DNA from: a bacterium | Lineage (GTDB): Bacteria; Patescibacteriota; Minisyncoccia; Phycocordibacterales; UBA9973 | Direction: 5' to 3' | DNA: 64,000 bases | Assembly: GCA_037143195.1 (NCBI GenBank) | Contig: JBAWZD010000002.1 | Coordinates: forward strand, 72,785-136,784 | In this document: positions 11,567 through 32,718 of the stretch, in pieces | How positions within the stretch are numbered: position 1 is the stretch's first letter | How the letters are laid out: the number at the start of each line of letters is the position of its first letter | Made by a program: the position numbers and the translations under genes | The notes under the pieces: model-generated | Database searches by the model: none | Seen by the model: only the letters and a program-made list of their open reading frames with translations | Told to the model about the DNA's origin: nothing

Positions 11567-13153
11567 ATGACAACTATCACACAGTGGATCAAACAAAAAA
11601 GTGTCATGCTCGGAGTGGTAGCTTCGATAGCAATCGTCACGCTTTTTTCATACGCCACACTCAATCCTCGTTTGACGCATGCCGCAGCGGGCATGGGTGG
11701 AGACCTTCATGGATACGCATGGAGCTCAACTGTGGGTTGGATGAGCATGAACTGCGCTGAGGGCAGTGCTACTGGAGGCACGGTATGTTCAACTTCAAAC
11801 TACAAAGTCACACTCGACCCTGCGACGCAGATTTTTTCGGGATACGCATGGAGTTCAAACGTTGGATGGGTTTCATTTAATTCGAGCGATGTTTCTTTTT
11901 GTGGCTCGCAAGCAGCACTTTCTGCGGGGAGAATGACTGGCTGGGCTCGTGTGCTGAGCGGTGTATATCCGAATGGAGCAGATGGCTGTATCAGTTTTGG
12001 TTCTGCAACGACGAGCACCTATGGCGTGAATGTAGATTCAGTCGCCGGGACATTTTCTGGCTATGCATGGGGCTCAATTACGCTCGGCTGGCTTGATTTT
12101 AGTCGCGTTACGATGACGCCGACCACTGCGACTGTTGATTTGAAAGTCTTTGACCCATCGACAGGTGTTGCGACAAACGGACCACTCACGGTAGCGCTTG
12201 CTTCAGGTACAGGCACTGCAAAACTTTCGTGGACATCAAGTGGTGTTTCGTCATGTACGGCGAGTGTGACTCCTGCGACGACATCATCTGCGACTGACTG
12301 GCATGGATCAGTCGCAACGACGAGTACTGGCGTTACTGTTGGTTACTCACTCGCATCATCGGCGACTTACACATATACAATTACTTGTACGCCATCAGGA
12401 GGGACACTTTCACCCGTGTCTGATTCAGTACAAGTTGTTGTTTCAGGAAGTAGTACCGGAACATATGTTGATCTCAAAGTGCAGGGAGTGAGTGGCCCAA
12501 CAGACGGTCCAATCACTATGCCAGATTGGACTGGTGGACCAGAAGTATTGCTCTGGACTTCATCGTCTGATGTCACTTCATGTGTGGCTGATTCAAGCCC
12601 TCGTGTTTCAGATTGGAATAGTACAACTGCAATTGGAACATCAAGTGTTTCAACCGCGATTACACTTCCATCAAATATGACGACAGGAATGCTTACTTAC
12701 GTGTATAAGATCGTTTGTTCTGGTAGTACAATTGCAACTGACACTGTACTTATCAATGTGCCACCTGCAGACGTGCCAACATGTGCAGTTCGCCCAGGGC
12801 CATACACAATTGGAACAGGAACACATGTACATTTTGAAGTTCCAATCACGATTGCATGGACACCAAGCTTCAATCCGACAGATTTTTCTCTCGACTTGAG
12901 TAGTGCCTCTGGACTTGCTGTTTCGCTTGTTGATACTGCTACAGGCGCACCGGCAACATCAATCACGGCACGAGGTGGACGTCTCGGACTTTGGATTGAT
13001 GGCGCGATGCCGACTTCAACGAAGACCATCGTGGTGAATGCAAGTCCATCGAGTGCAGGTACGGGAGTGACTTCATGTGATTCCGCAAGCATTGTGATTA
13101 ATCCATCGGGCAGCGGAGGTGTTCGCGGTACGTTCCCATGGCAGGAAAAATAA
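11567..13153 (+). CDS. secreted/anchored surface protein with GYAW-x3-GW repeats and Ig-like Thr/Ser-rich region
   Basis: N-terminal signal-anchor. Three repeats of HGYAWSSTVGWMSMN / SGYAWSSNVGWVSFN / SGYAWGSITLGWLDF occur. The rest is low-complexity and beta-rich. Confidence 0.6.
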   Translation: MTTITQWIKQKSVMLGVVASIAIVTLFSYATLNPRLTHAAAGMGGDLHGYAWSSTVGWMSMNCAEGSATGGTVCSTSNYKVTLDPATQIFSGYAWSSNVGWVSFNSSDVSFCGSQAALSAGRMTGWARVLSGVYPNGADGCISFGSATTSTYGVNVDSVAGTFSGYAWGSITLGWLDFSRVTMTPTTATVDLKVFDPSTGVATNGPLTVALASGTGTAKLSWTSSGVSSCTASVTPATTSSATDWHGSVATTSTGVTVGYSLASSATYTYTITCTPSGGTLSPVSDSVQVVVSGSSTGTYVDLKVQGVSGPTDGPITMPDWTGGPEVLLWTSSSDVTSCVADSSPRVSDWNSTTAIGTSSVSTAITLPSNMTTGMLTYVYKIVCSGSTIATDTVLINVPPADVPTCAVRPGPYTIGTGTHVHFEVPITIAWTPSFNPTDFSLDLSSASGLAVSLVDTATGAPATSITARGGRLGLWIDGAMPTSTKTIVVNASPSSAGTGVTSCDSASIVINPSGSGGVRGTFPWQEK

Positions 13154-13177
13154 TCGTATTACTAACTTATCAATAAT

Positions 13178-14308
13178 TTGTATACATATATGTTAAAAAA
13201 AATTCCATCGCTTTTGATTGTGCTTTCGTTCCTCAGTCTCACTGGAGTTGCACATGCTGCACTTGGTACGACTACTACGGCAGATCCGTGCCTCACTTCA
13301 GCTGGCGGTTCATCGACATGGGTTGCTCCAACAGGTGCGGCTCCGTCAAATAATGTCGCTGCTCCAATTAATGTGAGTGGCACAGATCAGGTAAAGCCGG
13401 GCAAATTGACCGTTGGGACACTTCCATGTCCGGCTCCTATCAATAACATCTGGACACCAACGTCAAAATTGACGGTGAATGGCATCACTGATACGGCTGG
13501 ATTTTCAAACTGGGGTGCGACGTTTTTGAGTGGACTTGTTTCTGTCGGCAGTACCTATACAGTTACTGGTACGGCAAAAGCTCCAAAATTATACGTGAAA
13601 GCTGACCCATTGGTGGGCACCTTTTCATCGACAAATCTTCCTCAGATTGCTGCTTTGTTCGGTGGTAATGTTGCTGTTCGAGGCACACTTGGGGTTACGC
13701 AAAATGATGGAAGCGTCCTTCCTTCGTCCGGTCTCACCGTATCAAGTGGATACAATACGATTTATGTTCAAGGTATTCCAGTATGTCTTCAGAATGGTTC
13801 TAATTGTCCTACCGGACTTGGTACTTCGACTACTGGTACGACGACTACCACGAGTTCTTCATGGACTGCGTCGGGAACAAGTCTCTATAATACAAACACG
13901 GGAACAGTCATGCTTGGCACGACTTCAAATATTTACCCAAGCACAAAACTCTTTGTCTCAGGTACTGCTCGCGTTGGTGCTGACGTGAACTATGGAACAA
14001 GCCCTGTACTCAGTGTCGCTCCTGGTACCGTAAACTTTGACGCTCCTGGAGTCATTGGTGGTCGTATGTCTATCAATGGCACTACAGGTGAAGTTACCAT
14101 CCCTGGCAATTTGAAAGTCGGAGGATCGAGTGTCTGTCGTGCAGATGGTACAAACTGTCCGTCAGCAGGTGGTATCACTCTCGGATCGGCGGTATACATC
14201 AATCAATGCCCCGGTGTCGCTTTTGGAATGCTGACAACCGTTGCGAGTTCGTACTGTGATGGCACAACATTTACAACGAATACTCCTGCAGGACATTTGG
14301 TTCCGTAA
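13178..14308 (+). CDS. secreted Gly/Thr/Ser-rich fibrous protein (possible pilus-associated adhesin)
   Basis: Signal peptide (SLLIVLSFLSLTGVAHA). The protein is T/G/S-rich with Cys pairs. A terminator follows at about 14341-14372. Confidence 0.5.
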   Translation: MYTYMLKKIPSLLIVLSFLSLTGVAHAALGTTTTADPCLTSAGGSSTWVAPTGAAPSNNVAAPINVSGTDQVKPGKLTVGTLPCPAPINNIWTPTSKLTVNGITDTAGFSNWGATFLSGLVSVGSTYTVTGTAKAPKLYVKADPLVGTFSSTNLPQIAALFGGNVAVRGTLGVTQNDGSVLPSSGLTVSSGYNTIYVQGIPVCLQNGSNCPTGLGTSTTGTTTTTSSSWTASGTSLYNTNTGTVMLGTTSNIYPSTKLFVSGTARVGADVNYGTSPVLSVAPGTVNFDAPGVIGGRMSINGTTGEVTIPGNLKVGGSSVCRADGTNCPSAGGITLGSAVYINQCPGVAFGMLTTVASSYCDGTTFTTNTPAGHLVP

Positions 14309-14418
14309 TCTGATTCTGGTTGTATACAATAAATCAGTGAGCAAAAAATCCGCGTGAGCGGATTTTTTGCTAGGCAGAATTTTTTTTCATTGATATAATG
14401 AATGAGTAAAAAATTCTT

Positions 14419-16170
14419 ATGCAAATTAACCCTGAGCAACTCAAAAGATTTATTGTTGAAAGTGGACTTGTGTCGACGACAGATATTGCTGCTGCTGAAA
14501 AAACAATCGCAGGTAAGGGAGAAAAAATAGGGCAAGCACTTGTTGCTGCAGGCAAATTGAAAGCCGCAGATTTGAAACGTATCGAAGCATACGTGATTGG
14601 AATTCCGTTTGTGTTTCTTGGGAATGAAAAAATTGAACCAGAAGTGCTCGCATTGATCCCAGAACCAATCGCGCGCACAAACAACGTCGTTGCGTTCAAG
14701 CGAAATGACGATCGATTGCAAGTCGCAATGCTTGATGTGGACGATCTTCCAACGATTGATTTCGTCAAGAAGAAGACTGGCCTCAAAATCGTGCCATGTT
14801 TGACTGATGAAGCTTCGATCAAGTCTGCGCTTCAACAATACAAGAAAAGTCTCAAAGCTGAATTCGATGCAATCATTGCCAAGGAATCAGTGTCTGCAAA
14901 AACGATTGCTGAAGGATCAGTTGCCGACGCGAGTGAAAAGGAATTGAAGGCGCTCGCGGAAGATTTGCCAATCGTGAAGATTGCCGATACGCTCATCGCG
15001 CATGCTATTAGTCAAAATGCATCCGACATTCACATTGAACCAGGGGAGGAGTCACTCGTCGTTCGCTATCGTATCGATGGAATTTTGCACGATGCGATGA
15101 CGCTTCCAAAAGATGTTGCTCCAGGATTGACTGCACGTATCAAAGTGCTTTCTGGATTGAAACTCGACGAGAAACGCTTGCCACAAGATGGACGTTTCAA
15201 AATGGAGAGTGACGGAGAAAAAGTTTCGTTTCGTGTCTCCACACTTCCAACCTACTACGGAGAAAAGACGGTACTTCGTTTGCTTCGCGAAACTTCTCAC
15301 GGATATACGCTTGAGAATTTGGGATTTCATGGTGATGCGCTCGAACGTATTCATACGGCAATGAAACAGCGTGCGGGAATGATTCTTGCAGCGGGACCAA
15401 CGGGAAGTGGAAAGACCACGACGCTGTACACTATGCTCGATATTCTCAATACGACGGATGTAAACATTTCAACCGTTGAAGACCCGATCGAATATCAGGT
15501 GCCACGCATCAACCAAACACAGGTGAAGCCAGAGATTGGACTTACGTTCGCGAACGGTCTCCGTACGTTGCTTCGTCAGGATCCTGACATCATCATGGTG
15601 GGAGAAATTCGTGACGGAGAGACGGCTGGGCTTGCGGTCAACGCGTCTCTCACGGGTCACTTGGTGCTCTCAACGATTCACACCAATAGTGCCGCAGGAG
15701 CGATTCCGCGCATGATTGATATGGGAATCGAGCCGTTCCTAATCGTCTCGACAGTAAAGACAGTAATGGCACAACGTCTTGTTCGCCGACTCACGCATGC
15801 CCGTGAAAAATATGTGCTAAACGATGCTGAGCTTGCTGCGTTGGGCAAACTCATTGATCTTGATGCGATGCTTGCACTTTTGAAGAAAGAAAAAATTATT
15901 GACCCAGCGATTACATGGCAACAAATCCCGTTTTATCGCCCGAAGAAAAGTGAAGAATCAGAAGATGGATACAAGGGGCGTGTCGGTATTCATGAAGTGC
16001 TCACAGTGTCTCAAACGATTCGTGAATTGATTTTGAAGGGAGCATCTCAAGATGTGATCAATGATCAGGCGCGCAAAGAGGGGATGATGACAATGCTCGA
16101 AGATGGAATCTTTCTTGCTGTGCAGGGACTCACAACGACTGAAGAAGTGCTCCGTGTTATCTCTGAATAA
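14419..16170 (+). CDS. pilB: type IV pilus assembly ATPase PilB / GspE family
   Basis: Walker A GPTGSGKTTT, and the GspE_N plus ATPase core are present. Confidence 0.9.
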   Translation: MQINPEQLKRFIVESGLVSTTDIAAAEKTIAGKGEKIGQALVAAGKLKAADLKRIEAYVIGIPFVFLGNEKIEPEVLALIPEPIARTNNVVAFKRNDDRLQVAMLDVDDLPTIDFVKKKTGLKIVPCLTDEASIKSALQQYKKSLKAEFDAIIAKESVSAKTIAEGSVADASEKELKALAEDLPIVKIADTLIAHAISQNASDIHIEPGEESLVVRYRIDGILHDAMTLPKDVAPGLTARIKVLSGLKLDEKRLPQDGRFKMESDGEKVSFRVSTLPTYYGEKTVLRLLRETSHGYTLENLGFHGDALERIHTAMKQRAGMILAAGPTGSGKTTTLYTMLDILNTTDVNISTVEDPIEYQVPRINQTQVKPEIGLTFANGLRTLLRQDPDIIMVGEIRDGETAGLAVNASLTGHLVLSTIHTNSAAGAIPRMIDMGIEPFLIVSTVKTVMAQRLVRRLTHAREKYVLNDAELAALGKLIDLDAMLALLKKEKIIDPAITWQQIPFYRPKKSEESEDGYKGRVGIHEVLTVSQTIRELILKGASQDVINDQARKEGMMTMLEDGIFLAVQGLTTTEEVLRVISE

Positions 16171-16181
16171 TTTTTACCACA

Positions 16182-17399
16182 ATGCTATTTGCTTATACAG
16201 CGCGAGATGCGCAAGGAGAAACAATCGAAGGTACGCTTGAAGCGGCCGATCGTTTTACTGTTGCAAAAGAACTCCGCGAACGAGCACAAACTCCGATCAC
16301 TGTTCGTGAAATTGTACCCAGAAACAGAGTTGCGCTTGGATTGTCTCGCATATTCGCGCACGTGAGTTTGCATGAAAAAATTGTGTTCATGCACAATCTT
16401 TCTGGAATGCTCTCGGCTGGGTTGCCGCTTTTTCGAGCACTCGAGGTTGAGAAGAAACAAAACAAGAATGCGATGCTTGTTACTATTTTTGATGGATTGC
16501 TCGCAACTATTAACCAAGGAGGTACTTTGTCAGAAGGACTTGCGAAATTTGTGGATGTATTTCCACCACTTGTAGTATCGATGGTTCGTGCCGGTGAAGA
16601 ATCAGGAAACCTCGCCGGTACGCTCAAGGAAATCGGAGATAACCTCGAAAAAAGTTATAAGTTGAACCGCAAGGTAAAAGGTGCGTTGATGTACCCGACG
16701 ATTGTTATCTCCGCTATCTTTATTATCGGAGCATTGATGCTTGTGTTTGTTGTACCGACTCTCACGAAAATTTTTAAAGACTTTGGAACGAAATTGCCAG
16801 CGTCAACACAGTTTGTGATTACGATTTCTGATGGAGTTTCTGCTCATCCGATCTTCTTCCTTGATTGTGTCATTGTTGTGTTTGCGGCATTTTTCTACTT
16901 TTTCAATTCAAAGCAGATGCAACGAACAAATGATCGTATGGCTCTTTCGTTCCCGGCGATTAAAAGTATCACTCAGGAAATAAACACTGCTCGTACCGCA
17001 CGAACACTTTCGTCACTCTTGTCTGCTGGAGTCGAAATGACACGTGCACTTTCAATCACCAAAGATGTCGTGCAAAATTCGTATTACAAAGATGTGCTTG
17101 AGCGCGCAAGTATTGCACTTCAAAAAGGAGAAACACTTTCGTCTGTATTCAAAGGGGCGCCTGATTTGTATCCAGTGATGGTAGGAGAGATGGTCGCCGT
17201 TGGAGAAGAAACTGGTGCGTTGACCTCAATGCTTGCAGACATCGCGACGTACTATGAAGAAGAAGTTGACGCGCAAACCAAAAATCTTTCGACCATCGTT
17301 GAACCAATTCTGATGATCTTTATTGGAGCAGCGGTTGGATTCTTTGCGGTATCAATGATTTCACCAATGTATGGTCTCGTGAGTACGCTTTCATCATAA
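16182..17399 (+). CDS. pilC: type IV pilus platform protein PilC / GspF family
   Basis: 405-aa polytopic membrane protein with the typical tandem GspF repeats. Confidence 0.85.
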   Translation: MLFAYTARDAQGETIEGTLEAADRFTVAKELRERAQTPITVREIVPRNRVALGLSRIFAHVSLHEKIVFMHNLSGMLSAGLPLFRALEVEKKQNKNAMLVTIFDGLLATINQGGTLSEGLAKFVDVFPPLVVSMVRAGEESGNLAGTLKEIGDNLEKSYKLNRKVKGALMYPTIVISAIFIIGALMLVFVVPTLTKIFKDFGTKLPASTQFVITISDGVSAHPIFFLDCVIVVFAAFFYFFNSKQMQRTNDRMALSFPAIKSITQEINTARTARTLSSLLSAGVEMTRALSITKDVVQNSYYKDVLERASIALQKGETLSSVFKGAPDLYPVMVGEMVAVGEETGALTSMLADIATYYEEEVDAQTKNLSTIVEPILMIFIGAAVGFFAVSMISPMYGLVSTLSS

Positions 17400-17411: not shown

Positions 17412-17891
17412 ATGCAATTATCATTCCAACACAAAAAAACTCAAGGTTTCATGCTCATTCAGTTGGTAATTGGTATTGTCGTTATTGGCATTCTCTCGGG
17501 AGTTGTTGCGCTCAATCTTGGCACATTTCTCGGGCACCAAGCGATAGACAACGGAGTCGGAGATGTAACGGCGCTCCTTGATGAAGCTCGTTCGCGTACT
17601 CTCGCACATGAAGCTGGATTACAATATGGTGTGCACCTTGAGACGACGAAGGCGGTTCTTTTTTCAGGGGCGACATATTCCACAATGGCCCCAGACAATC
17701 GAACCGTTCTTCTCGACCGCACGGTCGAGATCACCTCGATCTCGCTTGCTGGCGGGGGAACCGAAGTACTTTTTGACCCACTGACTGGAGATACCGAGGA
17801 AGATGGGACTTTTGTTGTGCAGGCAGTCACCTCGATGAGTGGTGCAAAAACGGTTACAATTACTCATGCGGGGCAAGTGAGTAGTCGGTAG
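17412..17891 (+). CDS. type IV (pseudo)pilin, prepilin-type N-terminus
   Basis: KKTQGFMLIQLVIGIVVIGILSG is a class III signal peptide with G|FMLIQ. Gln occupies +5 where Glu is usual. Confidence 0.7.
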   Translation: MQLSFQHKKTQGFMLIQLVIGIVVIGILSGVVALNLGTFLGHQAIDNGVGDVTALLDEARSRTLAHEAGLQYGVHLETTKAVLFSGATYSTMAPDNRTVLLDRTVEITSISLAGGGTEVLFDPLTGDTEEDGTFVVQAVTSMSGAKTVTITHAGQVSSR

Positions 17892-17897
17892 GTTTTC

Positions 17898-18413
17898 GTG
17901 TATCGTATGCAAAAACTATTTTTACGTATGCAGAATTTGAACGAGAAAGGATTCAACCTTGTTGAAATCGTTATCGCAACGGGAATTATTTCTCTGTCAC
18001 TTGTGTCTATTATCGCGATAGCGGGACGTTCAATTGCAGTCTCACATCGTGCACTCAATACATATACGGCAGCGCTCTTGCTTGAAGAAGGAGCTGAGGC
18101 TACACGCATTGTTCGAGACAATAGCTGGGCGACGATTTCAGGTTTGACTGCAGGTGATACCTATTATCCGGTGTTTGATCCTGCGACCAACACGTGGTCA
18201 CTTTCGACAAATCCGACGGATGGGGAGGTAGGTATGTATACTCGATCAATCATTCCACTCAATGTCCTTCGTAATTCAGGAGACGATATCGATGTTTCCG
18301 GGACGCTTGATACGGGGACACGATTCTTTACTGAAAATGTAACGTGGAGAGAGAGTAATGGACAGATGCAATCGAAGACGGAATCATTTTACCTGTCTGA
18401 TATATTTTCATAA
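17898..18413 (+). CDS. type IV pilin-like protein
   Basis: NEKGFNLVEIVIATGIISL carries the G|FNLVE prepilin motif. The true start is probably the internal Met around 17925. Confidence 0.7.
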   Translation: MYRMQKLFLRMQNLNEKGFNLVEIVIATGIISLSLVSIIAIAGRSIAVSHRALNTYTAALLLEEGAEATRIVRDNSWATISGLTAGDTYYPVFDPATNTWSLSTNPTDGEVGMYTRSIIPLNVLRNSGDDIDVSGTLDTGTRFFTENVTWRESNGQMQSKTESFYLSDIFS

Positions 18414-18418
18414 TAGTT

Positions 18419-18967
18419 ATGTGGCACTTTCAACAACAACTGAAAAATTTCGAGACACCTTCTCGCGAGGGAGGGTATTCATTTGTTGAAATTATTGTCT
18501 ATATGATGTTGTTTGTTACACTTTCAACGGTGCTAATCAGTTGTTTGATTGGCATGACCAAAAGTTATCGTGTCATGCGCTCAACAAATGACCTTATTGA
18601 TTCAGCGCATGTTTCTATGGAACGCATGACACGTGAAATACGTGGAGCAACAAGCATTGATTTGACGACGAGCGTTTTCGGAACAGATCCAGGTGTGCTC
18701 AAATTGAATACGACTGATTCGCTCGGGGTTTCGAAGACAGTTGAGTTTGATATGACGGGTGGAGCGCTTGAGATGGTAGACAGTAGTTATGGAACTCCGA
18801 CCGATTTGACGGGAGAAAGTGTTGCGGTGACTTCACTTATTTTTCGCAAGATCACACCCGCCCACGGAAGCGCCGTGAAAGTTGAAATGACGCTACACTC
18901 ACTTCGCTCTCCGATCGATCGTTCAATCTCACTGACTGATACTGTTGAACTTCGCGGAAGTTATTAA
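18419..18967 (+). CDS. pseudopilin / minor pilin-like protein
   Basis: REGGYSFVEIIVYMMLFVTL carries the G|YSFVE prepilin motif. Confidence 0.65.
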   Translation: MWHFQQQLKNFETPSREGGYSFVEIIVYMMLFVTLSTVLISCLIGMTKSYRVMRSTNDLIDSAHVSMERMTREIRGATSIDLTTSVFGTDPGVLKLNTTDSLGVSKTVEFDMTGGALEMVDSSYGTPTDLTGESVAVTSLIFRKITPAHGSAVKVEMTLHSLRSPIDRSISLTDTVELRGSY

Positions 18968-18972
18968 ATCGT

Positions 18973-20250
18973 ATGAATATCCGATCATCACAACAAAATA
19001 CGGAACGAGGTGCTGCGATGATGATTGCCGTAATCTTTTTTATTCTTGCCTCGGTGCTCCTCGTGCTCGGATTATCTGCACCTGCTGCTCGCGAATATCG
19101 TATTGGACTTGATGCTATCACTTCACGTCAAAGTCTTGCTGCAGGAGAGTCTGGGGTTGAAGATGGGTACTATCGTCTTAAAAATGGAATGCACCTCGGT
19201 TCGAGTACCTCATTTTTTATTGGGAATGTTTCTGCTTCGACAACGATTACAAATATTGGTGGCGGAGTTGAAGAGGTGGTTGGTACTGGAAATTCGTTGG
19301 GTGACCAACGTTCAAGCACGCTTCGCGCCGTCGTTGGAAGTAGCGTTCCTCTCCACTATGCTGTTATGTCTGATGATGGAGGTATAGATATGTCTGATAC
19401 ATCGTCGGTTACTGGCGATGTACATGCAGATAAGGAACTTCACGGACAAGATGGCGTCAGTATCAGTGGTACTGCAACGGTGGGAAATTCAGCGGCAGGT
19501 GCTTACGGAGTTGTGCGAGGAGATGATGCTGCACACCAGATTCATGTGGGCGTTGGTAGTGTCGGAAATGTGTATGCGCACACTGTCAACTACACAAATG
19601 CGACGGGGATATTGTACTGCACACTTGTGCTCAGTTCCTCAGGGCCGTGTTCTCCGTATCCGGACCCTGTCTATACAGAACTTCCAATTTCAAGCACCGA
19701 TATTTCAACATGGGAAACAGATGCAGCGAGCGGGGGAGTCATTTCGGGGAGCTATAGTGTTTCGACTGCGGGAGTTACGCTCGGACCAAAGAAAATCAAT
19801 GGTGATTTGATAATTCCTGATTCTGCAAATCTGACGCTCTCTGGGGTGCTGTGGGTCACCGGGAATCTCACAATCACAGGTAGTGGAAGTATCAATCTAT
19901 CTTCAAGTTTTGGATCAAACAGTAGCATGATTATTGTTGATGGTACGATTACTACGTCCGCGGGGAGCCATATTGTTGGGTCAGGAACTCCGGGAAGTTA
20001 TGTCTTGCTCCTTTCGAATAGTACAAGCTCAAGTGCGATTACTTACCGCGGAACAGGTTCGGCGGTTGTCTATGCTCGACAAGGAACAGCTATTTTGAAC
20101 GGTTCCGCTTCGGCAAGTTTTGTCGCAGGACAGACCGTACACTTGTTTGATACGTCCTCTGTTGTGTACGATTCAGCACTGCTCGGCACGGTATTTGTGA
20201 CAGGCGCAAGTACTCCCCCCGCAATTCTCTCGTGGAGAGAGACCAATTAG
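18973..20250 (+). CDS. PilX-like pilus assembly protein (N-terminal PilX_N-type anchor)
   Basis: ERGAAMMIAVIFFILASVLLVLGL at the N-terminus is followed by a large Ser/Gly/Thr-rich domain. Confidence 0.55.
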   Translation: MNIRSSQQNTERGAAMMIAVIFFILASVLLVLGLSAPAAREYRIGLDAITSRQSLAAGESGVEDGYYRLKNGMHLGSSTSFFIGNVSASTTITNIGGGVEEVVGTGNSLGDQRSSTLRAVVGSSVPLHYAVMSDDGGIDMSDTSSVTGDVHADKELHGQDGVSISGTATVGNSAAGAYGVVRGDDAAHQIHVGVGSVGNVYAHTVNYTNATGILYCTLVLSSSGPCSPYPDPVYTELPISSTDISTWETDAASGGVISGSYSVSTAGVTLGPKKINGDLIIPDSANLTLSGVLWVTGNLTITGSGSINLSSSFGSNSSMIIVDGTITTSAGSHIVGSGTPGSYVLLLSNSTSSSAITYRGTGSAVVYARQGTAILNGSASASFVAGQTVHLFDTSSVVYDSALLGTVFVTGASTPPAILSWRETN

Positions 20251-22701: not shown

Positions 22702-24444
22702 ATGCAAAGGACTTTTATCGACGCCCGCCACATCCGAGATGAGGACCATAGCCTCGTGGGATATAGTCCACTTCTCACACGACTGCTCGTCAATCGTGGA
22801 TATACGACGCCTGAATTGGCGGAGCGATTTTTGAAACCAAGCTATGACGGACATATGAATGATCCGTTTTTGATGCACGACATGGAGAAGGCTGTTGTTC
22901 GTATTCACCAAGCGATTCAATTGAACGAAGCGATTGTCATTTATGCCGACTACGACTGTGATGGGATTCCGGGGGCGGTCATCGCGTATGATTTTTTTGA
23001 GAAGATTGGATACAAAAATGTGTCTGTGTATATTCCGGATCGTCATCTCGAGGGGTATGGTCTCAACCGAAAAGCGGTGGAGCAATTTGTCGATGCTGGC
23101 GCGAAGCTCATCATCACGATTGACCTTGGTACGAGTAATCACGAAGACATTGCCGTTGCTCAGTCAAAAGGCGTGGATGTGATTGTGACGGATCATCATA
23201 TTCCGCATGAGACACTTCCCGAAGCGTATGCCGTCGTGAATCCAAAAGTCGGTGATACATATCCTGATCCGATGCTCTGTGGTTCAGGCGTCATGTTCAA
23301 ACTCGTCCAAGCATACCTCGCTCGCTACGCGAGCTCGCTCTCCATCACCCCTGGCTGGGAAAAATGGCTCCTCGACATGGCAGGCCTTGCCACACTCTCC
23401 GATATGGTGCCACTCACTGGCGAGAATAGAATCATTGCGCGTTTCGGCATGCAGGTTTTTCAAAAATCTCCACGCCCAGGCATCATGCAACTTTTGCGTA
23501 AACTCAATATTGACCAGCGCACTATCAGTGAAGACGATATTACCTTCATGGTCACGCCACGCTTAAATGCGGCGAGTCGTATGGATTCACCGATGCGTGC
23601 ATTTGAATTGCTCTCCGTGCGCGATAGCGTGCAGGCTGGCATGGTGGCGGATCATCTCACGAAGATCAACGATGAACGCAAGAGTCTCGTCGCGCATATT
23701 ATGAAAGATGTGAAGGCGAAATTGGCCGAGCGTGAGCTCGGCCCAATCATCGTCATTGGCAATCCGGATTGGCGTGTCGGTATTCTCGGTATCGTAGCAG
23801 GGAAAATAATGGAAGAATGGGACAGACCTGTCTTCGTCTGGGGTAGACAGGGAAGCCCGATTGCTGAAGGAGGCACACCGGTCGTCAAAGGTTCCTGCCG
23901 ATCAAATGGTGCGGTCAATATCGTCGAGCTCATGACGGCTGGACGCGAACATTTTTTGGATTTCGGTGGACACGAACTCGCGGGTGGATTTTCAGTCACA
24001 GAAGACACCGTGCACACACTCGAAGATATGTTGTGTGGGCTGTATGAAAGTCAGAAGCGTGATAGCGCCACAAGCGACGGGAAATCAAACACGACTGGTC
24101 CGCAGATTGATGCCGTACTCTCACTCTCTGAGGTCAACGACAACACAGCGACAATGCTCGCCGGCCTCTCACCATTTGGTCTCGGTAATCCAAAGCCACT
24201 CTTTCTCTTTCCTCGCGTCTCCGTCCGCAAAACCAAACAATTCGGCAAAGAAAAAAATCACCTCGAACTCCTCGTTGCCGACGACATGCAAGTCGAGCGC
24301 ACCGCCATGGCCTTCTTCGCCGATGGCGACACGTTCACCCGACCCGTCCGCGAAGGCGATATCATCGACCTTGTTGCGACAATAGAAAAATCCTACTTCG
24401 CTGGACGCACCACCATCCGCCTTCGAATTGTTGATGTGCGATAG
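22702..24444 (+). CDS. recJ: single-stranded-DNA-specific exonuclease RecJ
   Basis: DHH motifs (IYADYDCDGI; VIVTDHHIP) and a DHHA1 domain. Confidence 0.9.
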   Translation: MQRTFIDARHIRDEDHSLVGYSPLLTRLLVNRGYTTPELAERFLKPSYDGHMNDPFLMHDMEKAVVRIHQAIQLNEAIVIYADYDCDGIPGAVIAYDFFEKIGYKNVSVYIPDRHLEGYGLNRKAVEQFVDAGAKLIITIDLGTSNHEDIAVAQSKGVDVIVTDHHIPHETLPEAYAVVNPKVGDTYPDPMLCGSGVMFKLVQAYLARYASSLSITPGWEKWLLDMAGLATLSDMVPLTGENRIIARFGMQVFQKSPRPGIMQLLRKLNIDQRTISEDDITFMVTPRLNAASRMDSPMRAFELLSVRDSVQAGMVADHLTKINDERKSLVAHIMKDVKAKLAERELGPIIVIGNPDWRVGILGIVAGKIMEEWDRPVFVWGRQGSPIAEGGTPVVKGSCRSNGAVNIVELMTAGREHFLDFGGHELAGGFSVTEDTVHTLEDMLCGLYESQKRDSATSDGKSNTTGPQIDAVLSLSEVNDNTATMLAGLSPFGLGNPKPLFLFPRVSVRKTKQFGKEKNHLELLVADDMQVERTAMAFFADGDTFTRPVREGDIIDLVATIEKSYFAGRTTIRLRIVDVR

Positions 24445-24472
24445 AAATAAGTATTTGATACAATAGTTTCTC

Positions 24473-25231
24473 ATGAAAGAAAACACGATTACGATATTTA
24501 CAGACGGATCTTCGCGTGGCAATCCAGGGCCTGGGGGGTGGGGTGCAGTGGTGATTGATGTTTCCGGCAAAGTCTACGAACTTGGTGGCAGGGAAGATCA
24601 TACGACGAACAACCGCATGGAGATTGCGGCGGCGCTTGGTGCGCTCGCGCACATTGAATCGCGCAAACTCGCGGGAGATATTGAGGTCAATACTGACTCG
24701 GCATATTTGCTCCAAGGGATTACGGGTTGGGTGTACGGCTGGGAGAAAAATGGATGGAAGACGAAGACGGGTGACGACGTGCTCAATCAGGATTTGTGGC
24801 GAGAATTGGGCGCGCTCGTTGCGCGACTCAAAATGAAGCATACGCTCATGTGGAACAAAGTCGGCGGGCACATCGGACTCCTCGGCAACGAGCGCGCCGA
24901 TCTCATCGCGACCAACTGTGCTGACAAGACACAACAGCTCCTCTATGTTGGTCCGCTCACTCAATATGAACAGCTCATCGGTGGCTCGGTATTTTCTGGC
25001 ACAAGCGATGACAAAATCGTGCAAAAAAAAGCCAAGAAAAAATCAAGTTCGACCGCACCAGCGTATTCATATGTCTCACTTCTTGATGGTAAGATAGAAA
25101 CACACAAGACGTGGGCAGAATGCGAACGACGAGTCAAAGGTAAAAAGGCAACGAAATTTAAAAAAGTGTTCAGCAAGCAGGAGGAAGATTCTTTGAAATA
25201 CGAATGGAGCACACTCGCTCACAAACCATAG
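24473..25231 (+). CDS. rnhA: ribonuclease HI with Lys-rich C-terminal extension
   Basis: TDGSSRGNPGPGGWGAVV...NNRMEIAAALGAL...TDSAYL. The extra ~90-aa C-terminal tail is basic. Confidence 0.8.
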   Translation: MKENTITIFTDGSSRGNPGPGGWGAVVIDVSGKVYELGGREDHTTNNRMEIAAALGALAHIESRKLAGDIEVNTDSAYLLQGITGWVYGWEKNGWKTKTGDDVLNQDLWRELGALVARLKMKHTLMWNKVGGHIGLLGNERADLIATNCADKTQQLLYVGPLTQYEQLIGGSVFSGTSDDKIVQKKAKKKSSSTAPAYSYVSLLDGKIETHKTWAECERRVKGKKATKFKKVFSKQEEDSLKYEWSTLAHKP

Positions 25232-26697
25232 ATGGATATCTGGCTTCCGGTATTGTAGGCTTTGCCACCGGAATTATTTTTGCTTCGCTTGCTCATATGA
25301 CCGCCCCCGCGACTATAGTCGCGGGGGCGGTCGGCGTTTGTCTCCTCGTCCTCGCCACAATCATTCGCAAAGCGAGATCCTACACACTGGTCGCGGGTCT
25401 CTTCATCTGCGCATTTGTCCTCGGCATGTATCGTGCCGAAATTGCAAAACCGAATACGAAAGATTTTGAAAACAACATCGGCGAGAGCGTCACTGTCGAA
25501 GGTCTGATCGCAGATGAACCATCAGTAAAATCATATGGAGCAGGTTTTACCCTCGCGACGCCTGACCTCAGTTTTTCAGTTCGTACCAAAAAGAATACGC
25601 ATCTCGCATACGGTGACAAAGTCCTCGTGTATGGCACACTCGCACTCCCTGAGAATTTCATGACTGATCAAGGCACGGAATTCGATTACATTTCATATCT
25701 CTACAAAAGTAATGTTGTGTATCAAATCAAAAACGCGAACGCGACCGTACTCGAACACAATCATGGCAATTGGATAGTCGCACACTTGATCCCCGTAAAG
25801 AACGCAATCGTAAACTGTTTCCATCGCATCTTGCCCGCGTCACAAGCCGATCTGCTCGCCGGTCTCAATCTCGGCGTCAAAGCAAACATTGATCCGCAAT
25901 TCCGCGACGACCTCGTCACGACTGGCACGATTCATATGATTGCGCTTTCTGGATACAACGTGACCGTCGTTGCAAACGCACTCCAAAGTTTTTTTATCGA
26001 TATTCTCGGACTATCCATGCGTGTCGCGTCAGCAAGTGGCGCACTGTGTATCGTGCTGTTTGTCGTCATGACAGGGATGCAATCATCGGCGGTGCGAGCG
26101 GGGATCATGGCGCTCATCGGACTTTTTGCGCGCACCAAAGGTCGCACCTATGATGCATTTCGTGCGCTTGTCATCGCCGGATTTTTGATGATACTCTACG
26201 ATCCAAAATATCTGGTTTACGATGTGTCGTTTCAACTTTCATACCTCGCTACGCTCGGTATTCTGTTCGTCACCCCAGTGCTCGAGCGAACATTCGCACG
26301 CGTGCCCAAAAAAGTCGCGTACATTATTCTGCTCCGCGAACTCATGTCCGTCACCCTTGGCGCACAGACAGGAGTCTTGCCCTTCATTCTTTACAAAATG
26401 GGCACACTCTCGCTCATTGCACTCCCCGCAAATGTCGCGATATTACCCGCGGTCCCGCTTGCCATGGGATTCGGCGCGCTCGCGGGACTCATCGGCGCAT
26501 TCAGTCTCGGACTCGCATACCCCGCCTCACTTATCACACACTATCTCCTCAGCTATATCACCGGAGCCGTGCAATTCCTCGCGCGCGTCCCGTTCGCGTC
26601 AGTCGTCATAAAACACTTTCCATTATGGCTGTGTATCTGTATGTATTTGTGTCTAATGTTTTTTTTGTATAAAAAATGGCACAGTGAAAAAGTGTAG
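25204..26697 (+). CDS. comEC: DNA internalization channel ComEC/Rec2 (membrane competence domain only, no fused MBL domain)
   Basis: DUF4131-like N-terminal region (FDYISYLYKSNVVYQI) and a competence domain (GTIHMIALSGYNVTVV). Multiple TM helices are present. The 5' end overlaps rnhA, so the true start may be an internal Met. Confidence 0.75.
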   Translation: MEHTRSQTIDGYLASGIVGFATGIIFASLAHMTAPATIVAGAVGVCLLVLATIIRKARSYTLVAGLFICAFVLGMYRAEIAKPNTKDFENNIGESVTVEGLIADEPSVKSYGAGFTLATPDLSFSVRTKKNTHLAYGDKVLVYGTLALPENFMTDQGTEFDYISYLYKSNVVYQIKNANATVLEHNHGNWIVAHLIPVKNAIVNCFHRILPASQADLLAGLNLGVKANIDPQFRDDLVTTGTIHMIALSGYNVTVVANALQSFFIDILGLSMRVASASGALCIVLFVVMTGMQSSAVRAGIMALIGLFARTKGRTYDAFRALVIAGFLMILYDPKYLVYDVSFQLSYLATLGILFVTPVLERTFARVPKKVAYIILLRELMSVTLGAQTGVLPFILYKMGTLSLIALPANVAILPAVPLAMGFGALAGLIGAFSLGLAYPASLITHYLLSYITGAVQFLARVPFASVVIKHFPLWLCICMYLCLMFFLYKKWHSEKV

Positions 26698-29630: not shown

Positions 29631-29660
29631 AAAAACCGCCCCGTTGGGGCGGTTTTTGGG
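29631..29660. terminator. bidirectional terminator after rpmB
   Basis: AAAAACCGCCCCGTTGGGGCGGTTTTTGGG. Confidence 0.55.
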
Positions 29661-29672
29661 AGATACCATTAG

Positions 29673-29918
29673 TTACTTAATGATTCCAGCCTTTTTGAGC
29701 GCAGCATATGCACCAAGTTTGGTGATTGTGCGGATACCACGAGTACTGACGTCAATGACGAAAGTCTTCTTGAGCTCCGGAACATAGACTCGCTTCTTCT
29801 GCATGTTCGGATACTTACGAACCATGCCGGTTGGGTTGAACTTCGTTGCACGGGTGCGGTTAGAATAGCCACCTGCAACGATCGAACCTTTTTTAGTTAT
29901 TGCGCATACTTTTGCCAT
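29673..29918 (-). CDS. rpmB: 50S ribosomal protein L28
   Basis: MAKVCAITKKGSIVAGGYSNRTRATKFNPTGM... shows the L28 pattern. The internal ATG was chosen over the longer track ORF. Confidence 0.65.
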   Translation of the reverse strand: MAKVCAITKKGSIVAGGYSNRTRATKFNPTGMVRKYPNMQKKRVYVPELKKTFVIDVSTRGIRTITKLGAYAALKKAGIIK

Positions 29919-29931
29919 AGGGATTTGCGAA

Positions 29932-30594
29932 GTGCATGCTATCATAGAGATACATTCTATGCAAGGCTTTCTCGGATCTATCTTCTATATCGTCGTTCTC
30001 ATCATGTCGGTCGTGGTCCACGAAGTGGCGCACGGTTTCGCTGCCGAGAGCCAAGGCGACCCGACCGCTCGCTATGCTGGACGACTCACGATGAACCCGC
30101 TTCGCCACCTCGACATGGTCGGTTCGGTCATTCTTCCGCTCCTCCTCGTGCTCTTTCACGCGGGATTTATGATTGGCTGGGCCAAGCCTGTGCCATACAA
30201 CGAACGCAACCTCCGCAACAAACGCTGGGGGACTGCAATCGTCGCTTCTGCGGGTATCCTCGTGAATCTTTGTCTTGCAATTTTGTTTGGTCTTCTCATT
30301 CGTGTCGCACCACTTGTGCTCGGAAGTTCCGCACAAGCGTTCACTGATATCGCAAGTGTGATCGTGATTGTGAATTTGGTGCTCGCGCTTTTCAACCTCA
30401 TTCCTATTCCGCCACTCGATGGATCCAAAATTCTGTTTTCACTCTTTCCACGAAGCACGATAAAATTTCAAGCGATGGTCGAATACCTTTCACTCCCACT
30501 CCTCATTCTCTTTTTGTTTTATCTCTGGCCACTTATTTTCCCGTTTGTCGGCACACTGTTCACGTTTATCACGGGCACGTCGCTTGGTTTCTAG
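29932..30594 (+). CDS. M50-family (site-2 protease-like) membrane metalloprotease
   Basis: HEVAHG is an HExxH motif, and LDGSKIL is the second zinc-ligand motif. The protein is polytopic. Confidence 0.7.
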   Translation: MHAIIEIHSMQGFLGSIFYIVVLIMSVVVHEVAHGFAAESQGDPTARYAGRLTMNPLRHLDMVGSVILPLLLVLFHAGFMIGWAKPVPYNERNLRNKRWGTAIVASAGILVNLCLAILFGLLIRVAPLVLGSSAQAFTDIASVIVIVNLVLALFNLIPIPPLDGSKILFSLFPRSTIKFQAMVEYLSLPLLILFLFYLWPLIFPFVGTLFTFITGTSLGF

Positions 30595-30603
30595 TCACAC
30601 ATC

Positions 30604-32718
30604 ATGCGCCCCTCACGTCTTTTCATTCTGATCGCGAGTGTTATCGGATTCCTCATTCCGGTGGCACTTTTTGCTTCCACGGGTGGCATTGATGCGACGA
30701 ATCACACCGCACGATTGTGTTCGAACGAGGATTGTTCCGCCTATTCAATCGTCAATTGGAAACCAACAAACGGTGGGGGAGTTTCAATTACCGATACAAC
30801 ACTTTCTGGATATATTTGGTCAAACAAACTCGGATGGATCAATCTCGCGCCAATAAATGGCGGAGTGCACAACACCTCGAGCGGTACAGTCTCGGGCGAT
30901 GCATGGGGCTCGACCGCGAGTTGGGTGAATTTTCGTCCAACACACGGCGGAGTCACGATCAATCCGTCGACGGGGGAATTTTCTGGCTATGCATGGGTTT
31001 CCGGTGGCGGCTGGATGCTGTTTGATTGTTCCAAAGCCGATGCTTGTGTGAAGACTGATTGGCGTCCAACTGTTGTGGTGACGACGCACACCACTCCACC
31101 TCCTCCGCTCATTTGTCTCGACCGCACAGCGCTCAATTATGGAGGATCGCTTCCGTGTGTGTACCCGACACTGTGTACTGATACAACTGCGACCAATTAT
31201 GGTTCCGTTGGAATGTGTACGTACGCATTATTGTGTCAGGATCGAACGGCAACAAATTTCGGCGGGTCATTACCGTGTACGTATACGCTGACGTGTACTG
31301 ACACAACGGCGACGAATTACGGTTCTACCGGTAGCTGCACCTACGCGCTATTGTGTCGAGACCGCACCGCTACCAACTATGGCGGAGCATTGCCATGTTC
31401 CTATGCGACGACTTGTACCGATACTGCAGCGACCAACTACGGCGCGACGGGTGCGTGTACGTATGCGCCACCACCACTATGTCTTGATACAACTGCGACG
31501 AACTACCTCGGTTCATTTCCATGTGTATACGCAAGCACAATCTGTACTGATCCATCAGCTAGCAATTTCCGACAATCTGGCACCTGTGTGTATCCAACAA
31601 TAGTTCACACTGAAACGACCGGAGGGGGAGGCGGTTGTCCAATTTCTACCGCGACTGACATTGTCGGAGAAGTTATCGGCCAAGTAAAAAATAGTTACTG
31701 TAATACGACGCAGACTGTCGGCACGACATACAAAAAAGTAAAAGCGATTCTTGGTACGAGCACTGCCACAAAAGCTGAAGCTGTTGCTGCGACCGTGGGA
31801 GTTGTTGCAAGTGCTGCAACATCAATTTTCACCGCGCTCTTTTTGAATCCACTTTCATTCTCCGAAATCTTCCTGATCCCTGCTCGCTTGTGGTCGCTTC
31901 TCCTCGCTGCGCTCGGACTCAAAAAACGTCACCAGCCATGGGGCACGGTCTATGACAGTATCACCAAACAACCACTTGATCCTGCATATGTGACACTCCG
32001 TACTATTGAAGGAGAAGACGTCGTTTCCAATTTGACCGACCTCGATGGACGATTCGGATTCGTGGTGCCAAAGCCAGGTGTGTATTCAATCTTCGCGCAG
32101 AAGACGAACTATCTTTTCCCATCACAGCAACTCGTCGGACGTGACCACGACGAGCTCTACCGAGATTTGTATTTCGGCGAACACTTTACTGTTGAGAATG
32201 CGGGAGATGTCGTCATCAAAAATATTCCGATGGATCCAATGCATTTCGATTGGAATGAATTCGCGAAGAATCAACAGAACCTCATGAAGTTCTATTCGAA
32301 GCGTGACAAGATTTTGCGTCGCGTGTCCGACGTCCTTTTTGGCGCAGGATTTGCAATTGCGATTCTTGCGACAGTATTTGCCCCAAAACTATACAATATT
32401 ATTGTCCTCGTTTTGTATGTCGGACTCTTCTTCCTCCGTCAATATGGCAAACATTCACGACCATACGGAGATATCACCGATGCGAAAACCGGTTTGCCAC
32501 TTTCATTTGCGCTCATTCGCATCGCGTCGCTTTCAACTGGCGTTGAGGTCATGCACCGCATTGCCGATGCGCAAGGCCGATATTACGCACTTCTCCCAAA
32601 TGCCGACTACAAAGTCCGCATCGATCGCAAACTGCCCGACGGCACCTATCAAACCGCAGTCACTGACCTACCCGCAACCGTCAAGAAAGGCTATCTCTCG
32701 AGTAAATTCAAGGTGTAG
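30604..32718 (+). CDS. large surface/membrane protein with GYAW repeats, eight 20-aa two-Cys tandem repeats, and a C-terminal TM domain
   Basis: N-terminal anchor. Three repeats of LSGYIWSNKLGWINL / VSGDAWGSTASWVNF / FSGYAWVSGGGWMLF. Eight copies of xC(T/Q/R)DxTATNYGxxxxC(T/V)Yxx. A Gly5 linker and about four C-terminal TM helices. The stop codon lies inside a 42-bp perfect inverted repeat. Confidence 0.65.
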   Translation: MRPSRLFILIASVIGFLIPVALFASTGGIDATNHTARLCSNEDCSAYSIVNWKPTNGGGVSITDTTLSGYIWSNKLGWINLAPINGGVHNTSSGTVSGDAWGSTASWVNFRPTHGGVTINPSTGEFSGYAWVSGGGWMLFDCSKADACVKTDWRPTVVVTTHTTPPPPLICLDRTALNYGGSLPCVYPTLCTDTTATNYGSVGMCTYALLCQDRTATNFGGSLPCTYTLTCTDTTATNYGSTGSCTYALLCRDRTATNYGGALPCSYATTCTDTAATNYGATGACTYAPPPLCLDTTATNYLGSFPCVYASTICTDPSASNFRQSGTCVYPTIVHTETTGGGGGCPISTATDIVGEVIGQVKNSYCNTTQTVGTTYKKVKAILGTSTATKAEAVAATVGVVASAATSIFTALFLNPLSFSEIFLIPARLWSLLLAALGLKKRHQPWGTVYDSITKQPLDPAYVTLRTIEGEDVVSNLTDLDGRFGFVVPKPGVYSIFAQKTNYLFPSQQLVGRDHDELYRDLYFGEHFTVENAGDVVIKNIPMDPMHFDWNEFAKNQQNLMKFYSKRDKILRRVSDVLFGAGFAIAILATVFAPKLYNIIVLVLYVGLFFLRQYGKHSRPYGDITDAKTGLPLSFALIRIASLSTGVEVMHRIADAQGRYYALLPNADYKVRIDRKLPDGTYQTAVTDLPATVKKGYLSSKFKV

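Follow-up and report, generated by a model that had tools for sequence, protein, structure and literature searches.

We analyzed a 64 kb stretch of DNA (the window) that encodes two proteins, here called A and B, with a shared sequence motif. The features of both genes and their neighbors are listed in Table 1. A six-frame regular-expression scan, together with the translations, found the canonical motif GYAWSxxxGW(I/V/M)xF exactly six times in the window, starting at residues 49, 92, and 165 of protein A and at residues 68, 97, and 127 of protein B. This agrees with the three motifs per protein described in the initial annotation. The random expectation for this expression is estimated at ~4e-4 per 128,000 translated residues. 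The spacing of 35-45 residues given previously was not reproduced, as the motifs are 43 and 73 residues apart in A and 29-30 residues apart in B. The larger gap in A holds a degenerate fourth hairpin (GWARVLSG…DGCISF, residues 122-145). A tRNA scan and an Rfam scan of the whole window were both empty.

Table 1. Features of the protein A and protein B loci (window coordinates)
Feature	Position	Strand	Basis or remarks
Small single-pass membrane protein, ~106 aa	11241..11561	+	Translation; directly 5' of A
Protein A, 528 aa	11567..13153	+	Signal peptide, GYAW barrel, Ig/PKD-like domains, C-terminal W-x-E tail
A Sec-type signal peptide, aa 1-39 (…LTHA-AAG)	11567..11683	+	Read from sequence; putative cleavage site
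A GYAW beta-barrel (predicted), aa 38-191	11678..12139	+	Domain HMM, AF2
A canonical hairpins	11699-11755, 11831-11881, 12047-12103	+	
A degenerate hairpin	11930-12001	+	
A Ser/Thr-rich Ig/PKD-like domains, aa 192-510, one Cys pair each	12140..13096	+	Homologue-profile matches
A C-terminal tail, GTFPWQEK-COOH	13127..13150	+	Case of family-wide aromatic-x-Glu terminus
Secreted Thr/Gly-rich protein, 376 aa	13178..14308	+	Between A and pilB; no family match
pilB, T2SSE ATPase	14419-16170	+	Pfam E 1.4e-122
pilC, T2SSF platform	16182-17399	+	Pfam E 4e-56
Four minor-pilin-like genes (159, 171, 182, 425 aa)	17412..20250	+	Prepilin-like N-termini
M50 intramembrane metalloprotease	29932..30594	+	Pfam 2.9e-16; conserved 5' neighbor of B
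Protein B, 704 aa	30604..32718	+	Signal peptide, barrel, Cys-repeat stalk, membrane domain (4 TM helices and 2 transthyretin-like domains)
B GYAW barrel (predicted), aa 27-155	30682..31068	+	HMM, AF2
B degenerate first hairpin	~30706-30759	+	
B canonical hairpins	30799-30846, 30883-30933, 30973-31023	+	
Eight Cys units, aa 171-330	31114..31593	+	17-aa core C-x-D-x-x-A-x-N-Y/F-G-x-x-x-P-C-x-Y, 20-23-aa period
Gly5 run, aa 340-344	31621..31635	+	Between stalk and membrane-proximal helix
B conserved membrane domain	31771..32712	+	
B TM1-2	31771-31926	+	
B CarboxypepD_reg/transthyretin-like domain 1	31942-32238	+	
B TM3-4	32299-32445	+	
B CarboxypepD_reg/transthyretin-like domain 2	32467-32712	+	

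The predicted structures show that the GYAW motifs are beta-hairpins belonging to a single compact, all-beta domain of ~130-150 residues, and not the repeats they had been taken for. The domain is predicted to have four hairpins, of which as a rule three are canonical and the other is degenerate, and these form a small closed up-and-down beta-barrel. The AF2 model of the domain in A has a pLDDT of 88.8 and a pTM of 0.84, and the barrel module of B has a pLDDT of 91-98. Structure prediction had been suggested previously as a way to look for a beta-propeller or beta-helix; the models are neither, nor are they an open repeat array. They do not match an open superhelical hairpin solenoid of the choline-binding type, and A and B lack the 4-8 four-stranded blades of propeller repeats such as FG-GAP, Kelch, PQQ, and WD40.

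Both proteins have the four hairpins, the G-x-x-W-S…G-W signature, and a match to the domain HMM. The HMM envelope in A spans residues 38-191 with an E-value of 6e-61 (A itself is included in the model), and a family HMM built on homologues of A recovers B (E = 3e-17). At least 120 proteins among the listed matches of the protein A search match the domain HMM, that is, all 120 of 120. The invariant columns are G12, W15, S16, G20, W21, W58, G63, W64, G88, G103, A130, W131, G132, G137, and W138. Within hairpins, the anchor spacings are constant (8 and 6 residues) and the cores contain near-invariant Gly and Trp, while the linkers from one hairpin to the next range in length from ~12 to 40 residues.

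The motif had been called unusual, but it marks a family in which the domain profile matches 9,229 clusters (50% identity) at E<=1e-3 and 1,789 at E<=1e-30. No Pfam or NCBIfam model matched the GYAW region of 27 proteins (A, B, and 25 homologues), with A and B scanned at E<=10. A PDB sequence search with the homologue profile returned only Ig/PKD chains, through its C-terminal columns, and the barrel was without a match. By these searches, the family is shown to be very large and to have no curated model, in line with the earlier view that the motif lies outside known repeat families. The earlier distinction from choline-binding repeats and GW modules also held, as hmmscan against Pfam at E<=10 gave no match to the choline-binding repeat (CW_binding_1, a ~20-residue GW…YY tandem) in A or in the N-terminus of B. 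Searches of the full-text literature for the motif and for sorting signals of CPR bacteria returned nothing relevant. Family members are overwhelmingly from Patescibacteria. The modules are not strictly lineage-specific, as there is at least one robust case outside the group: P0273, a 3,269-residue protein with two canonical GYAW copies on a contig of a diderm Desulfobacterales MAG.

The barrel occurs in three alternative architectures, namely A-type, B-type, and fused to a type IV prepilin N-terminus. A-type proteins have Ig/PKD-like domains and a conserved aromatic-x-Glu C-terminal tail, and B-type proteins have a stalk and a C-terminal 4-TM domain. In both of these, the barrel directly follows the signal peptide; in pilin fusions, as in many proteins with several copies, it is internal or C-terminal. 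A prepilin N-terminus is present in five family matches (P0054, with PF07963 at 3.7e-6, P0028, P0081, P0109, and P0252). A and B themselves are not type IV pilins or pseudopilins, since they have ordinary hydrophobic signal peptides; class III signals are found only in the fused relatives. Partner domains across the family include PKD, Ig, TIG, TSP3, Laminin_G, and VWA, which, with the signal peptides, fit exported proteins and surface display. We judged A and B to be extracellular because both have a signal peptide, an even number of Cys that all lie in exported parts, and partner domains of the Ig/PKD type; this favors the original reading of both as surface proteins.

In homologues of A, the hydrophobic N-terminus ends in an AxA-like site immediately before the first hairpin. 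The full-length homologue profile matches Ig-like and PKD chains (9ncf_S, 6e-6; 6nz0_Z, 2e-4), and homologues carry Ig_Rha78A_N, PKD, TIG, or InlB-B at the equivalent region. The aromatic-x-Glu tail ends 146 of 252 anchorless GYAW proteins, compared with 1.3% of internal 8-mers, and is absent from all five pilin-fused and all 120 B-family proteins. It lies within the last 2-8 residues in A and most homologues with no TM helix behind it. It is not a sortase- or exosortase-type signal (LPXTG, PEP-CTERM), as these are followed by a TM helix, and no NCBIfam model matched.

The eight two-Cys units described previously in B were confirmed with the pattern C-x-D-x-x-[AS]-x-N-[YF]-x5-C-x-Y. They had been called tandem, which is correct for the protein, but TRF finds no tandem repeats in the DNA. 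Drawing the statistics from the B-family matches, we found the unit in 24 of 121 members, with 1-11 copies each. The AF2 model of the region has a pLDDT of 40-82 and almost no regular secondary structure, and searching the region alone against PDB sequences gave no match. A homologue search with the Cys repeats only was empty and is uninformative, as it missed even P0121 at 92% identity. We read the units as a disulfide-stapled stalk, the disulfides being putative. The Gly5 hinge and four TM helices noted previously were both recovered, with helices predicted at residues 390-414, 419-441, 566-592, and 596-614. The C-terminal half of B scores above the curated CarboxypepD_reg (PF13620) cut-off. 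Comparison with CarboxypepD_reg/transthyretin-like and CnaB-type domains covers only this half, and, unlike in those, the two domains of B are interleaved with two TM hairpins. The membrane module, which has no characterized member, is conserved among Patescibacteria. The gene order M50-B-rpsL is kept in L084, and also in L085 and L086 with one or two extra genes inserted.

Protein A had been placed immediately upstream of a type IV pilus operon. The neighborhood is indeed conserved, but the 376-residue ORF intervenes before pilB. Its counterparts are unannotated and of variable length (438 residues in L001, 289 in L003); tblastn similarity was detected in L001 (62%) and not in L003. A gene of 104-106 residues occupies the equivalent place 5' of the A homologue in both loci. 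At the locus of a 44%-identical homologue, whose upstream region differs, the order of small TM gene, A, the intervening ORF, pilB, pilC, and pilins is unchanged. The prepilin-like N-termini read G-FMLIQL, G-FNLVEI, and G-YSFVEI, with the putative processing point after G. The 425-residue minor pilin ends in …SWRETN, and this W-x-E-x-x terminus is kept in five distinct orthologues (L001/L002, L003, L006, L023, and L053), so that A and the largest (GspK/PilX-like) minor pilin of the operon have a W-x-E terminus in common. Of the 43 family loci whose downstream sequence extends for 8 kb or more, 12 have a same-strand pilB in that direction; in most GYAW loci, pilB is absent over a distance of 10 kb. 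Four loci (L009, L018, L037, and L075) have the order NusA-A-TIM and no pilB match within the 10 kb examined. The association of A with the pilus may therefore be, in part, inherited gene order. A promoter-like site lies at 14371-14399, just 5' of pilB, so co-transcription of A and pilB cannot be assumed; the promoter/terminator scan was not above shuffled controls.

Several known systems resemble the GYAW proteins in part. Like PilY1 and PilC-type tip proteins, A is Sec-secreted, lacks a prepilin N-terminus, is encoded beside minor-pilin genes, and is modular with a candidate binding domain at its N-terminus; relatives fuse the barrel to a pilin. Unlike PilY1 and Neisseria PilC, it has an Ig/PKD-like C-terminal region in place of a C-terminal beta-propeller and no match to their Pfam models. 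It is also much smaller than PilY1, with Ig-like spacers and a short W-x-E tail, and its pilus association is putative. The eight-stranded soluble barrels of Gram-negative bacteria (TbpB/LbpB lobes, HpuA, fHbp, NHBA, and hemophilin) are likewise surface-exposed with variable loops, and bind ligands, as we propose for GYAW barrels. However, identity to TbpB/HpuA/fHbp/hemophilin-type barrels is 5-15% with Foldseek TM <=0.43, which is not significant; GYAW proteins lack a lipobox and handle domain, and the Gram-negative barrels lack the internal repetition of four hairpins with invariant Gly and Trp. CW_binding_1 and Listeria GW modules share with them short aromatic- and Gly-rich beta-hairpin repeats, exported proteins, bacteria without an outer membrane, and a binding role (proposed here), but form open superhelical arrays or SH3-like domains, whereas four GYAW hairpins are predicted to make one closed barrel of fixed copy number.

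Our result is descriptive, and from it we infer a function for the barrel. With modest confidence, we think the conserved scaffold with variable loops is probably a binding module displayed on the surface or pilus, with a putative role in adhesion. The barrel would be exposed on the cell surface or pilus, and its variable loops would bind a putative ligand (glycan, wall polymer, or protein). Protein A, exported by the Sec route, may serve the neighboring type IV pilus cluster as an accessory protein in a PilY1-like role; its barrel would point outward, its Ig-like domains would act as a spacer, and its W-x-E tail would dock to a partner on the pilus or in the envelope. In protein B, a stalk of eight disulfide-closed loops would hold the barrel off the membrane, and the membrane module probably cooperates with the neighboring M50 protease.

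A different reading, unlikely in our view but deserving real weight, is that the barrel anchors proteins to the cell's own envelope (peptidoglycan, secondary wall polymer, or S-layer), much as SLH, LysM, choline-binding, or GW modules do. B would then tether membrane to wall over a stalk of set length, and the variable C-terminal domains of A-type proteins would face outward as the functional parts. Aromatic residues are abundant in the hairpins, whose strong conservation is greatest in the single-copy, syntenic B family, where many barrel columns are at least 90% conserved across 92 sequences; variation among members falls after the barrel and not in its core; and stalk copy number ranges from 1 to 11. 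A protein so conserved and syntenic is a poor fit to a fast-evolving, host-specific adhesin, and the conservation of B and its linkage to the M50 protease and housekeeping genes appear to fit a conserved ligand of the cell's own better than a role in recognizing hosts. Against envelope anchoring, the pilin fusions place the barrel on the pilus, at a distance from the producer's wall, the conserved tail of A-type proteins is a separate part that resembles an attachment element, barrel loop lengths vary, and no known wall-binding module in Pfam or NCBIfam matches by sequence or profile.

The co-occurrence of tail and N-terminal barrel in those 146 anchorless proteins, and in no anchored ones, also invites a head-to-tail arrangement, in which the aromatic-x-Glu tail of an A-type molecule or the large minor pilin docks or inserts into the GYAW barrel of another to build fibers or load the pilus tip. 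The conserved W-x-E-x-x end of the operon's largest minor pilin would suit this. Yet B-family proteins and pilin fusions have the barrel and no tail, a few secreted proteins (L041 and L043) have the tail and no barrel hairpins detectable by regular expression, and we regard the arrangement as very improbable. That the motifs are a chance or low-complexity likeness, or a divergent known repeat (choline-binding, GW, FG-GAP, Kelch, or PQQ propeller blades), is hardly tenable. The short Gly/Trp-rich hairpin does superficially resemble GW-type and choline-binding repeats, but the six copies far exceed the chance estimate, HMM E-values reach 1e-91 over thousands of proteins, and the empty Pfam and NCBIfam scans at E<=10 already contradict it.

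A large part of bacterial diversity belongs to the Patescibacteria, which live attached to other cells and whose surface proteins are mostly unannotated. The GYAW domain is now defined across thousands of protein clusters, with boundaries, a confident predicted fold, and three recurrent anchoring modes (C-terminal tail, 4-TM module, and pilin helix). With a curated model, many "hypothetical" proteins could be annotated at one stroke, and the barrel loops and W-x-E tail offer defined targets for work on binding and localization. A broader and doubtful extension of the binding-module reading is that barrel and tail make up a loading system of a Patescibacteria type, which would put interchangeable secreted binders onto the pilus tip or cell surface, with the tail as a new TM-free C-terminal docking or sorting signal and the barrel as a host- or glycan-recognition head. 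If true, sequence would offer a way into the question of how ultrasmall episymbionts select and retain their hosts. The genomic link is to an organelle that binds hosts in cultivated Saccharibacteria, where binding is mediated by type IV pili and lectin-like minor pilins (PMC11623550). One of the pilin-fused GYAW genes is itself adjoined by a PilM_2 gene.

Proteins A and B, both predicted to be exported, each carry three GYAW motifs, as the initial annotation had stated. A six-frame regular-expression scan of the whole 64-kb window gave 6 matches, all in these two proteins, against a chance expectation that we estimate at ~4e-4. The motif spacing, put earlier at 35-45 residues, is in fact 43 and 73 residues in protein A and 29-30 in protein B. 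The positions of all features are collected in the table.

Features of the two GYAW proteins, their surroundings and selected relatives (window positions unless a locus is named)
Feature	Coordinates	Residues	Details
Protein A	11567-13153 (+)	528 aa	
Signal peptide of A			Sec-type; ends …LTHA, before AAG
Barrel domain of A		38-191	~150 aa; local HMM iteration
Motifs of A (translation)		49, 92, 165	HGYAWSSTVGWMSMN, SGYAWSSNVGWVSFN, SGYAWGSITLGWLDFS
Terminus of A	13127-13150		…FPWQEK
Secreted protein	13178-14308	376 aa	between A and pilB
Largest minor pilin	18973-20250		ends …SWRETN
recJ, RNase H gene, comEC	22702-26697		between pilus cluster and B
M50 protease, B, rpsL, rpsG, fusA	29932-33383		
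Protein B	30604-32718 (+)	704 aa	
Motifs of B (translation)		68, 97, 127	SGYIWSNKLGWINLA, SGDAWGSTASWVNFR, SGYAWVSGGGWMLFD
Cys units of B		171-330	eight C-x-D-x-x-[AS]-x-N-[YF]-x5-C-x-Y
Cys-repeat query	31096-31608		
Gly5 run of B		340-344	
P0273 gene	L089 8001-17810	3,269 aa	hairpin clusters at aa 48-160 and 490-580
Peptidase_S74 genes	L086 3413-5974; L087 1352-3529		

In homologues of protein A, the motifs mostly follow directly after the signal peptide. An alignment of the domain (A2) shows four units, three of them canonical (L-x-G-Y-A-W-S-x-x-x-G-W-I-x-F) and the fourth a conserved variant, G-W-A-R-A-L-S-G…G-W-D-G-W-I-S-L, which reads GWARVLSG…DGCISF in protein A. Invariant positions are G12, W15, S16, G20, W21, W58, G63, W64, G88, G103, A130, W131, G132, G137, and W138. 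Spacing within hairpins is constant, and the connecting segments range from 12 to 40 residues. An HMM of the hairpin only found 3 canonical hairpins in each protein and missed the degenerate ones, and a profile HMM built from A homologues matches protein B at E = 3e-17. AlphaFold2 folded the protein A domain, with 82 sequences, into an all-beta model (pLDDT 88.8, pTM 0.84). The initial annotation had asked about a beta-propeller or beta-helix; the prediction is instead a closed four-hairpin barrel, which as modeled rules out both as well as an open solenoid. Foldseek returned no match at E ≤ 1e-3 (TM up to 0.43). Based on the HMM match and these AlphaFold2 and Foldseek results, proteins A and B have one domain in common, a predicted four-hairpin closed barrel. 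Identity to the structures compared, among them TbpB, LbpB, fHbp, NHBA, avidins, and Gid4, was 2-18%, and the likeness to known barrels, including those of the TbpB and hemophilin type, appears to be one of general topology only. Of the diagnostic features that were tested for choline-binding repeats, GW modules, propeller repeats, pilins, PilY1, and sortase-type signals, the barrel family showed none.

The A2 profile was searched against 1.84 billion representatives at 50% identity, giving 9,229 matches at E ≤ 1e-3, 6,948 at E ≤ 1e-10, and 1,789 at E ≤ 1e-30, with single proteins matching in up to 12 separate stretches. In the protein A search, the homologues listed were all unnamed or "hypothetical," and the few with an organism name came from Patescibacteria MAGs. 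In a scan with one genome per species, 555 of 599 candidate stretches were confirmed, the best 80 of which were all from Patescibacteria except for two oddly labelled bins. The earlier description of a lineage-specific module does not hold strictly, however, as homologue P0273 (E 1.4e-52) carries canonical hairpins on a contig of a Desulfobacterales MAG; the family is therefore not confined to Patescibacteria. This contig also codes for Toluene_X, CsgG, and LpoB-type genes, and P0273 itself for Big_6, Big_13, Lcl_C, and Peptidase_C13 domains. Partner domains across GYAW proteins include Ig_Rha78A_N, PKD, TIG, InlB-B, TSP3_bac, Laminin_G_3, Glug, and VWA. Scans of A, B, and 25 homologues with Pfam and NCBIfam left the GYAW region without a match, in agreement with the initial annotation, and no description of the motif was found in full-text literature. 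The barrel is thus a domain family without a curated model.

After its signal peptide, protein A (10 Cys) consists of the barrel followed by Ser/Thr-rich Ig/PKD-like domains; the A-homologue profile matches the Ig-like/PKD chains 9ncf_S (6e-6) and 6nz0_Z (2e-4). The gene order is nusA (minus strand), a small TM protein, A, the 376-aa secreted protein, pilB, pilC, four minor-pilin-like genes, tpiA, and pgk, with a promoter-like site before pilB. Protein A had been placed immediately upstream of the pilus operon, but the secreted ORF intervenes. That ORF has no family match; its orthologues in L001, L004, and L008 share a loosely conserved end, G-[YH]-L-x-P, the family termini being AGHLVP, AGYLLTPVTP, LLGYLQPL, and IGYLMP. 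The A/pilus arrangement is retained in relatives 63% and 44% identical, the latter having a different upstream region with yidC, R3H, and T4SS genes. Downstream sequence of 8 kb or more was available for 43 GYAW loci, which are not phylogenetically independent; in 12 of them a same-strand pilB (33-82% identical to that of the window) follows, where we estimate 1-2% by chance for a random gene in a ~1 Mb genome. The link to the pilus is limited by the promoter-like site in front of pilB and by four loci (L009, L018, L037, and L075) in which A lies between nusA and tpiA and the ~10 kb retrieved on each side gave no pilB match. The pilus cluster appears to be a block that can be inserted or removed at this position. 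The stretch from this cluster to protein B contains recJ, an RNase H gene, and comEC, so that DNA uptake may be a role of the pilus besides attachment.

Most A homologues end in P-x-[WFY]-x-E-Φ-COOH or LPLP-x-W-x-E-[VI]-x-P-x regardless of their middle domains (for example PPWxEF, PIFEEF, and LPLPxWxEVxP… among P0001-P0120 and P0241-P0380, loci L003-L083). An aromatic-x-Glu within the last eight residues occurs in 146 of 252 GYAW proteins without another anchor (background in internal 8-mers, 1.3%), in 0/5 pilin-fused members, and in 0/120 B-family proteins. No TM helix follows the motif and the tail therefore differs from LPXTG and PEP-CTERM signals. A similar terminus, [SFG]-W-x-E-x-x, is found on the largest minor pilin of the operon and on every complete orthologue examined, five distinct ones (L001, L003, L006, L023, and L053). 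The tail of the GYAW proteins may act as a novel signal for docking or sorting. In P0043, P0078, and P0110 (similarly P0032 and P0046), a different Cys motif, C-x-N/D-G-x-C-E-x-x-E-x-x-x-x-C-P-x-D-C, stands in place of the W-x-E tail or ahead of it.

The eight two-Cys units, Gly5 run, and four predicted TM helices reported for protein B were all recovered. TRF finds no tandem repeat at the DNA level over the Cys units, which are therefore diverged copies. The 22 Cys of protein B are all in the ectodomain, where they can be arranged as local pairs, and one disulfide per unit (C1-C15) is likely. In the model, the Cys-repeat region is loosely structured (pLDDT 40-82), and a predicted long helix, two TM, a transthyretin-like domain (PF13620, 48 bits against a cut-off of 32.3), two TM, and a second transthyretin-like domain follow. 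A homologue search with protein B gave 630 matches. Conservation is strong in the C-terminal half, where identity in the best local alignments is mostly 40-70% and many columns do not vary, and nearly all members have the barrel motifs at aa ~70, ~100, and ~130. The insert between barrel and membrane domain varies (for example Cys units, VWA, FG-GAP, or chitobiase-C type domains); Cys units occur in 24 of 121 members, in 1-11 copies with a period of 19-24. A word-index search with the Cys-repeat region alone had no match and missed even the 92%-identical P0121, negatives from this tool being unreliable for such short repetitive queries. The order M50 protease, B, rpsL, rpsG, and fusA is essentially conserved in three diverged Patescibacteria genomes (L084, L085, and L086), two of them having one or two additional genes in between and one a different upstream region. 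Protein B is therefore a conserved, syntenic envelope protein and not an accessory adhesin, and the shared order suggests that its 4-TM module is either a partner or a substrate of the M50 protease.

The barrel probably serves in binding: its conserved scaffold and variable loops would be displayed on the surface or pilus. Protein A would be an accessory protein of the pilus cluster with a role like that of PilY1, and protein B a membrane-anchored version on a stalk. Five family members have a prepilin N-terminus, including P0054 (PF07963), and one prepilin-fused member (pilin, Laminin_G_3, and four hairpins) adjoins a PilM_2 gene. The barrel is accompanied by three mutually exclusive candidate anchors, the tail, the 4-TM module, and the pilin helix, from which we infer that the barrel would be the displayed part and the other element the attachment. 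The main competing explanation, in which the barrel attaches to the wall or S-layer of its own cell and B tethers membrane to wall, fits the strong conservation and synteny of B, but we think it unlikely given the pilin fusions and the separate tail. That the tail and barrel dock or polymerise is more improbable still. Chance, or a known repeat family behind the motifs, retains a negligible probability, since the profile matches and the fold speak against both. The family is of a familiar kind, that of beta-barrel binding modules displayed at the surface on stalk domains beside pilus genes, and the finding is conceptually unsurprising, its functional role being the part we infer; the family has a wide reach and offers testable handles in its loops, in the tail, and in the connection to M50.

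Across the whole 64-kb window, ARAGORN found no tRNA or tmRNA and Rfam gave no family at the gathering threshold. At two unrelated loci, large Peptidase_S74 proteins, with a tailspike-type intramolecular chaperone domain, are encoded directly beside GYAW genes.
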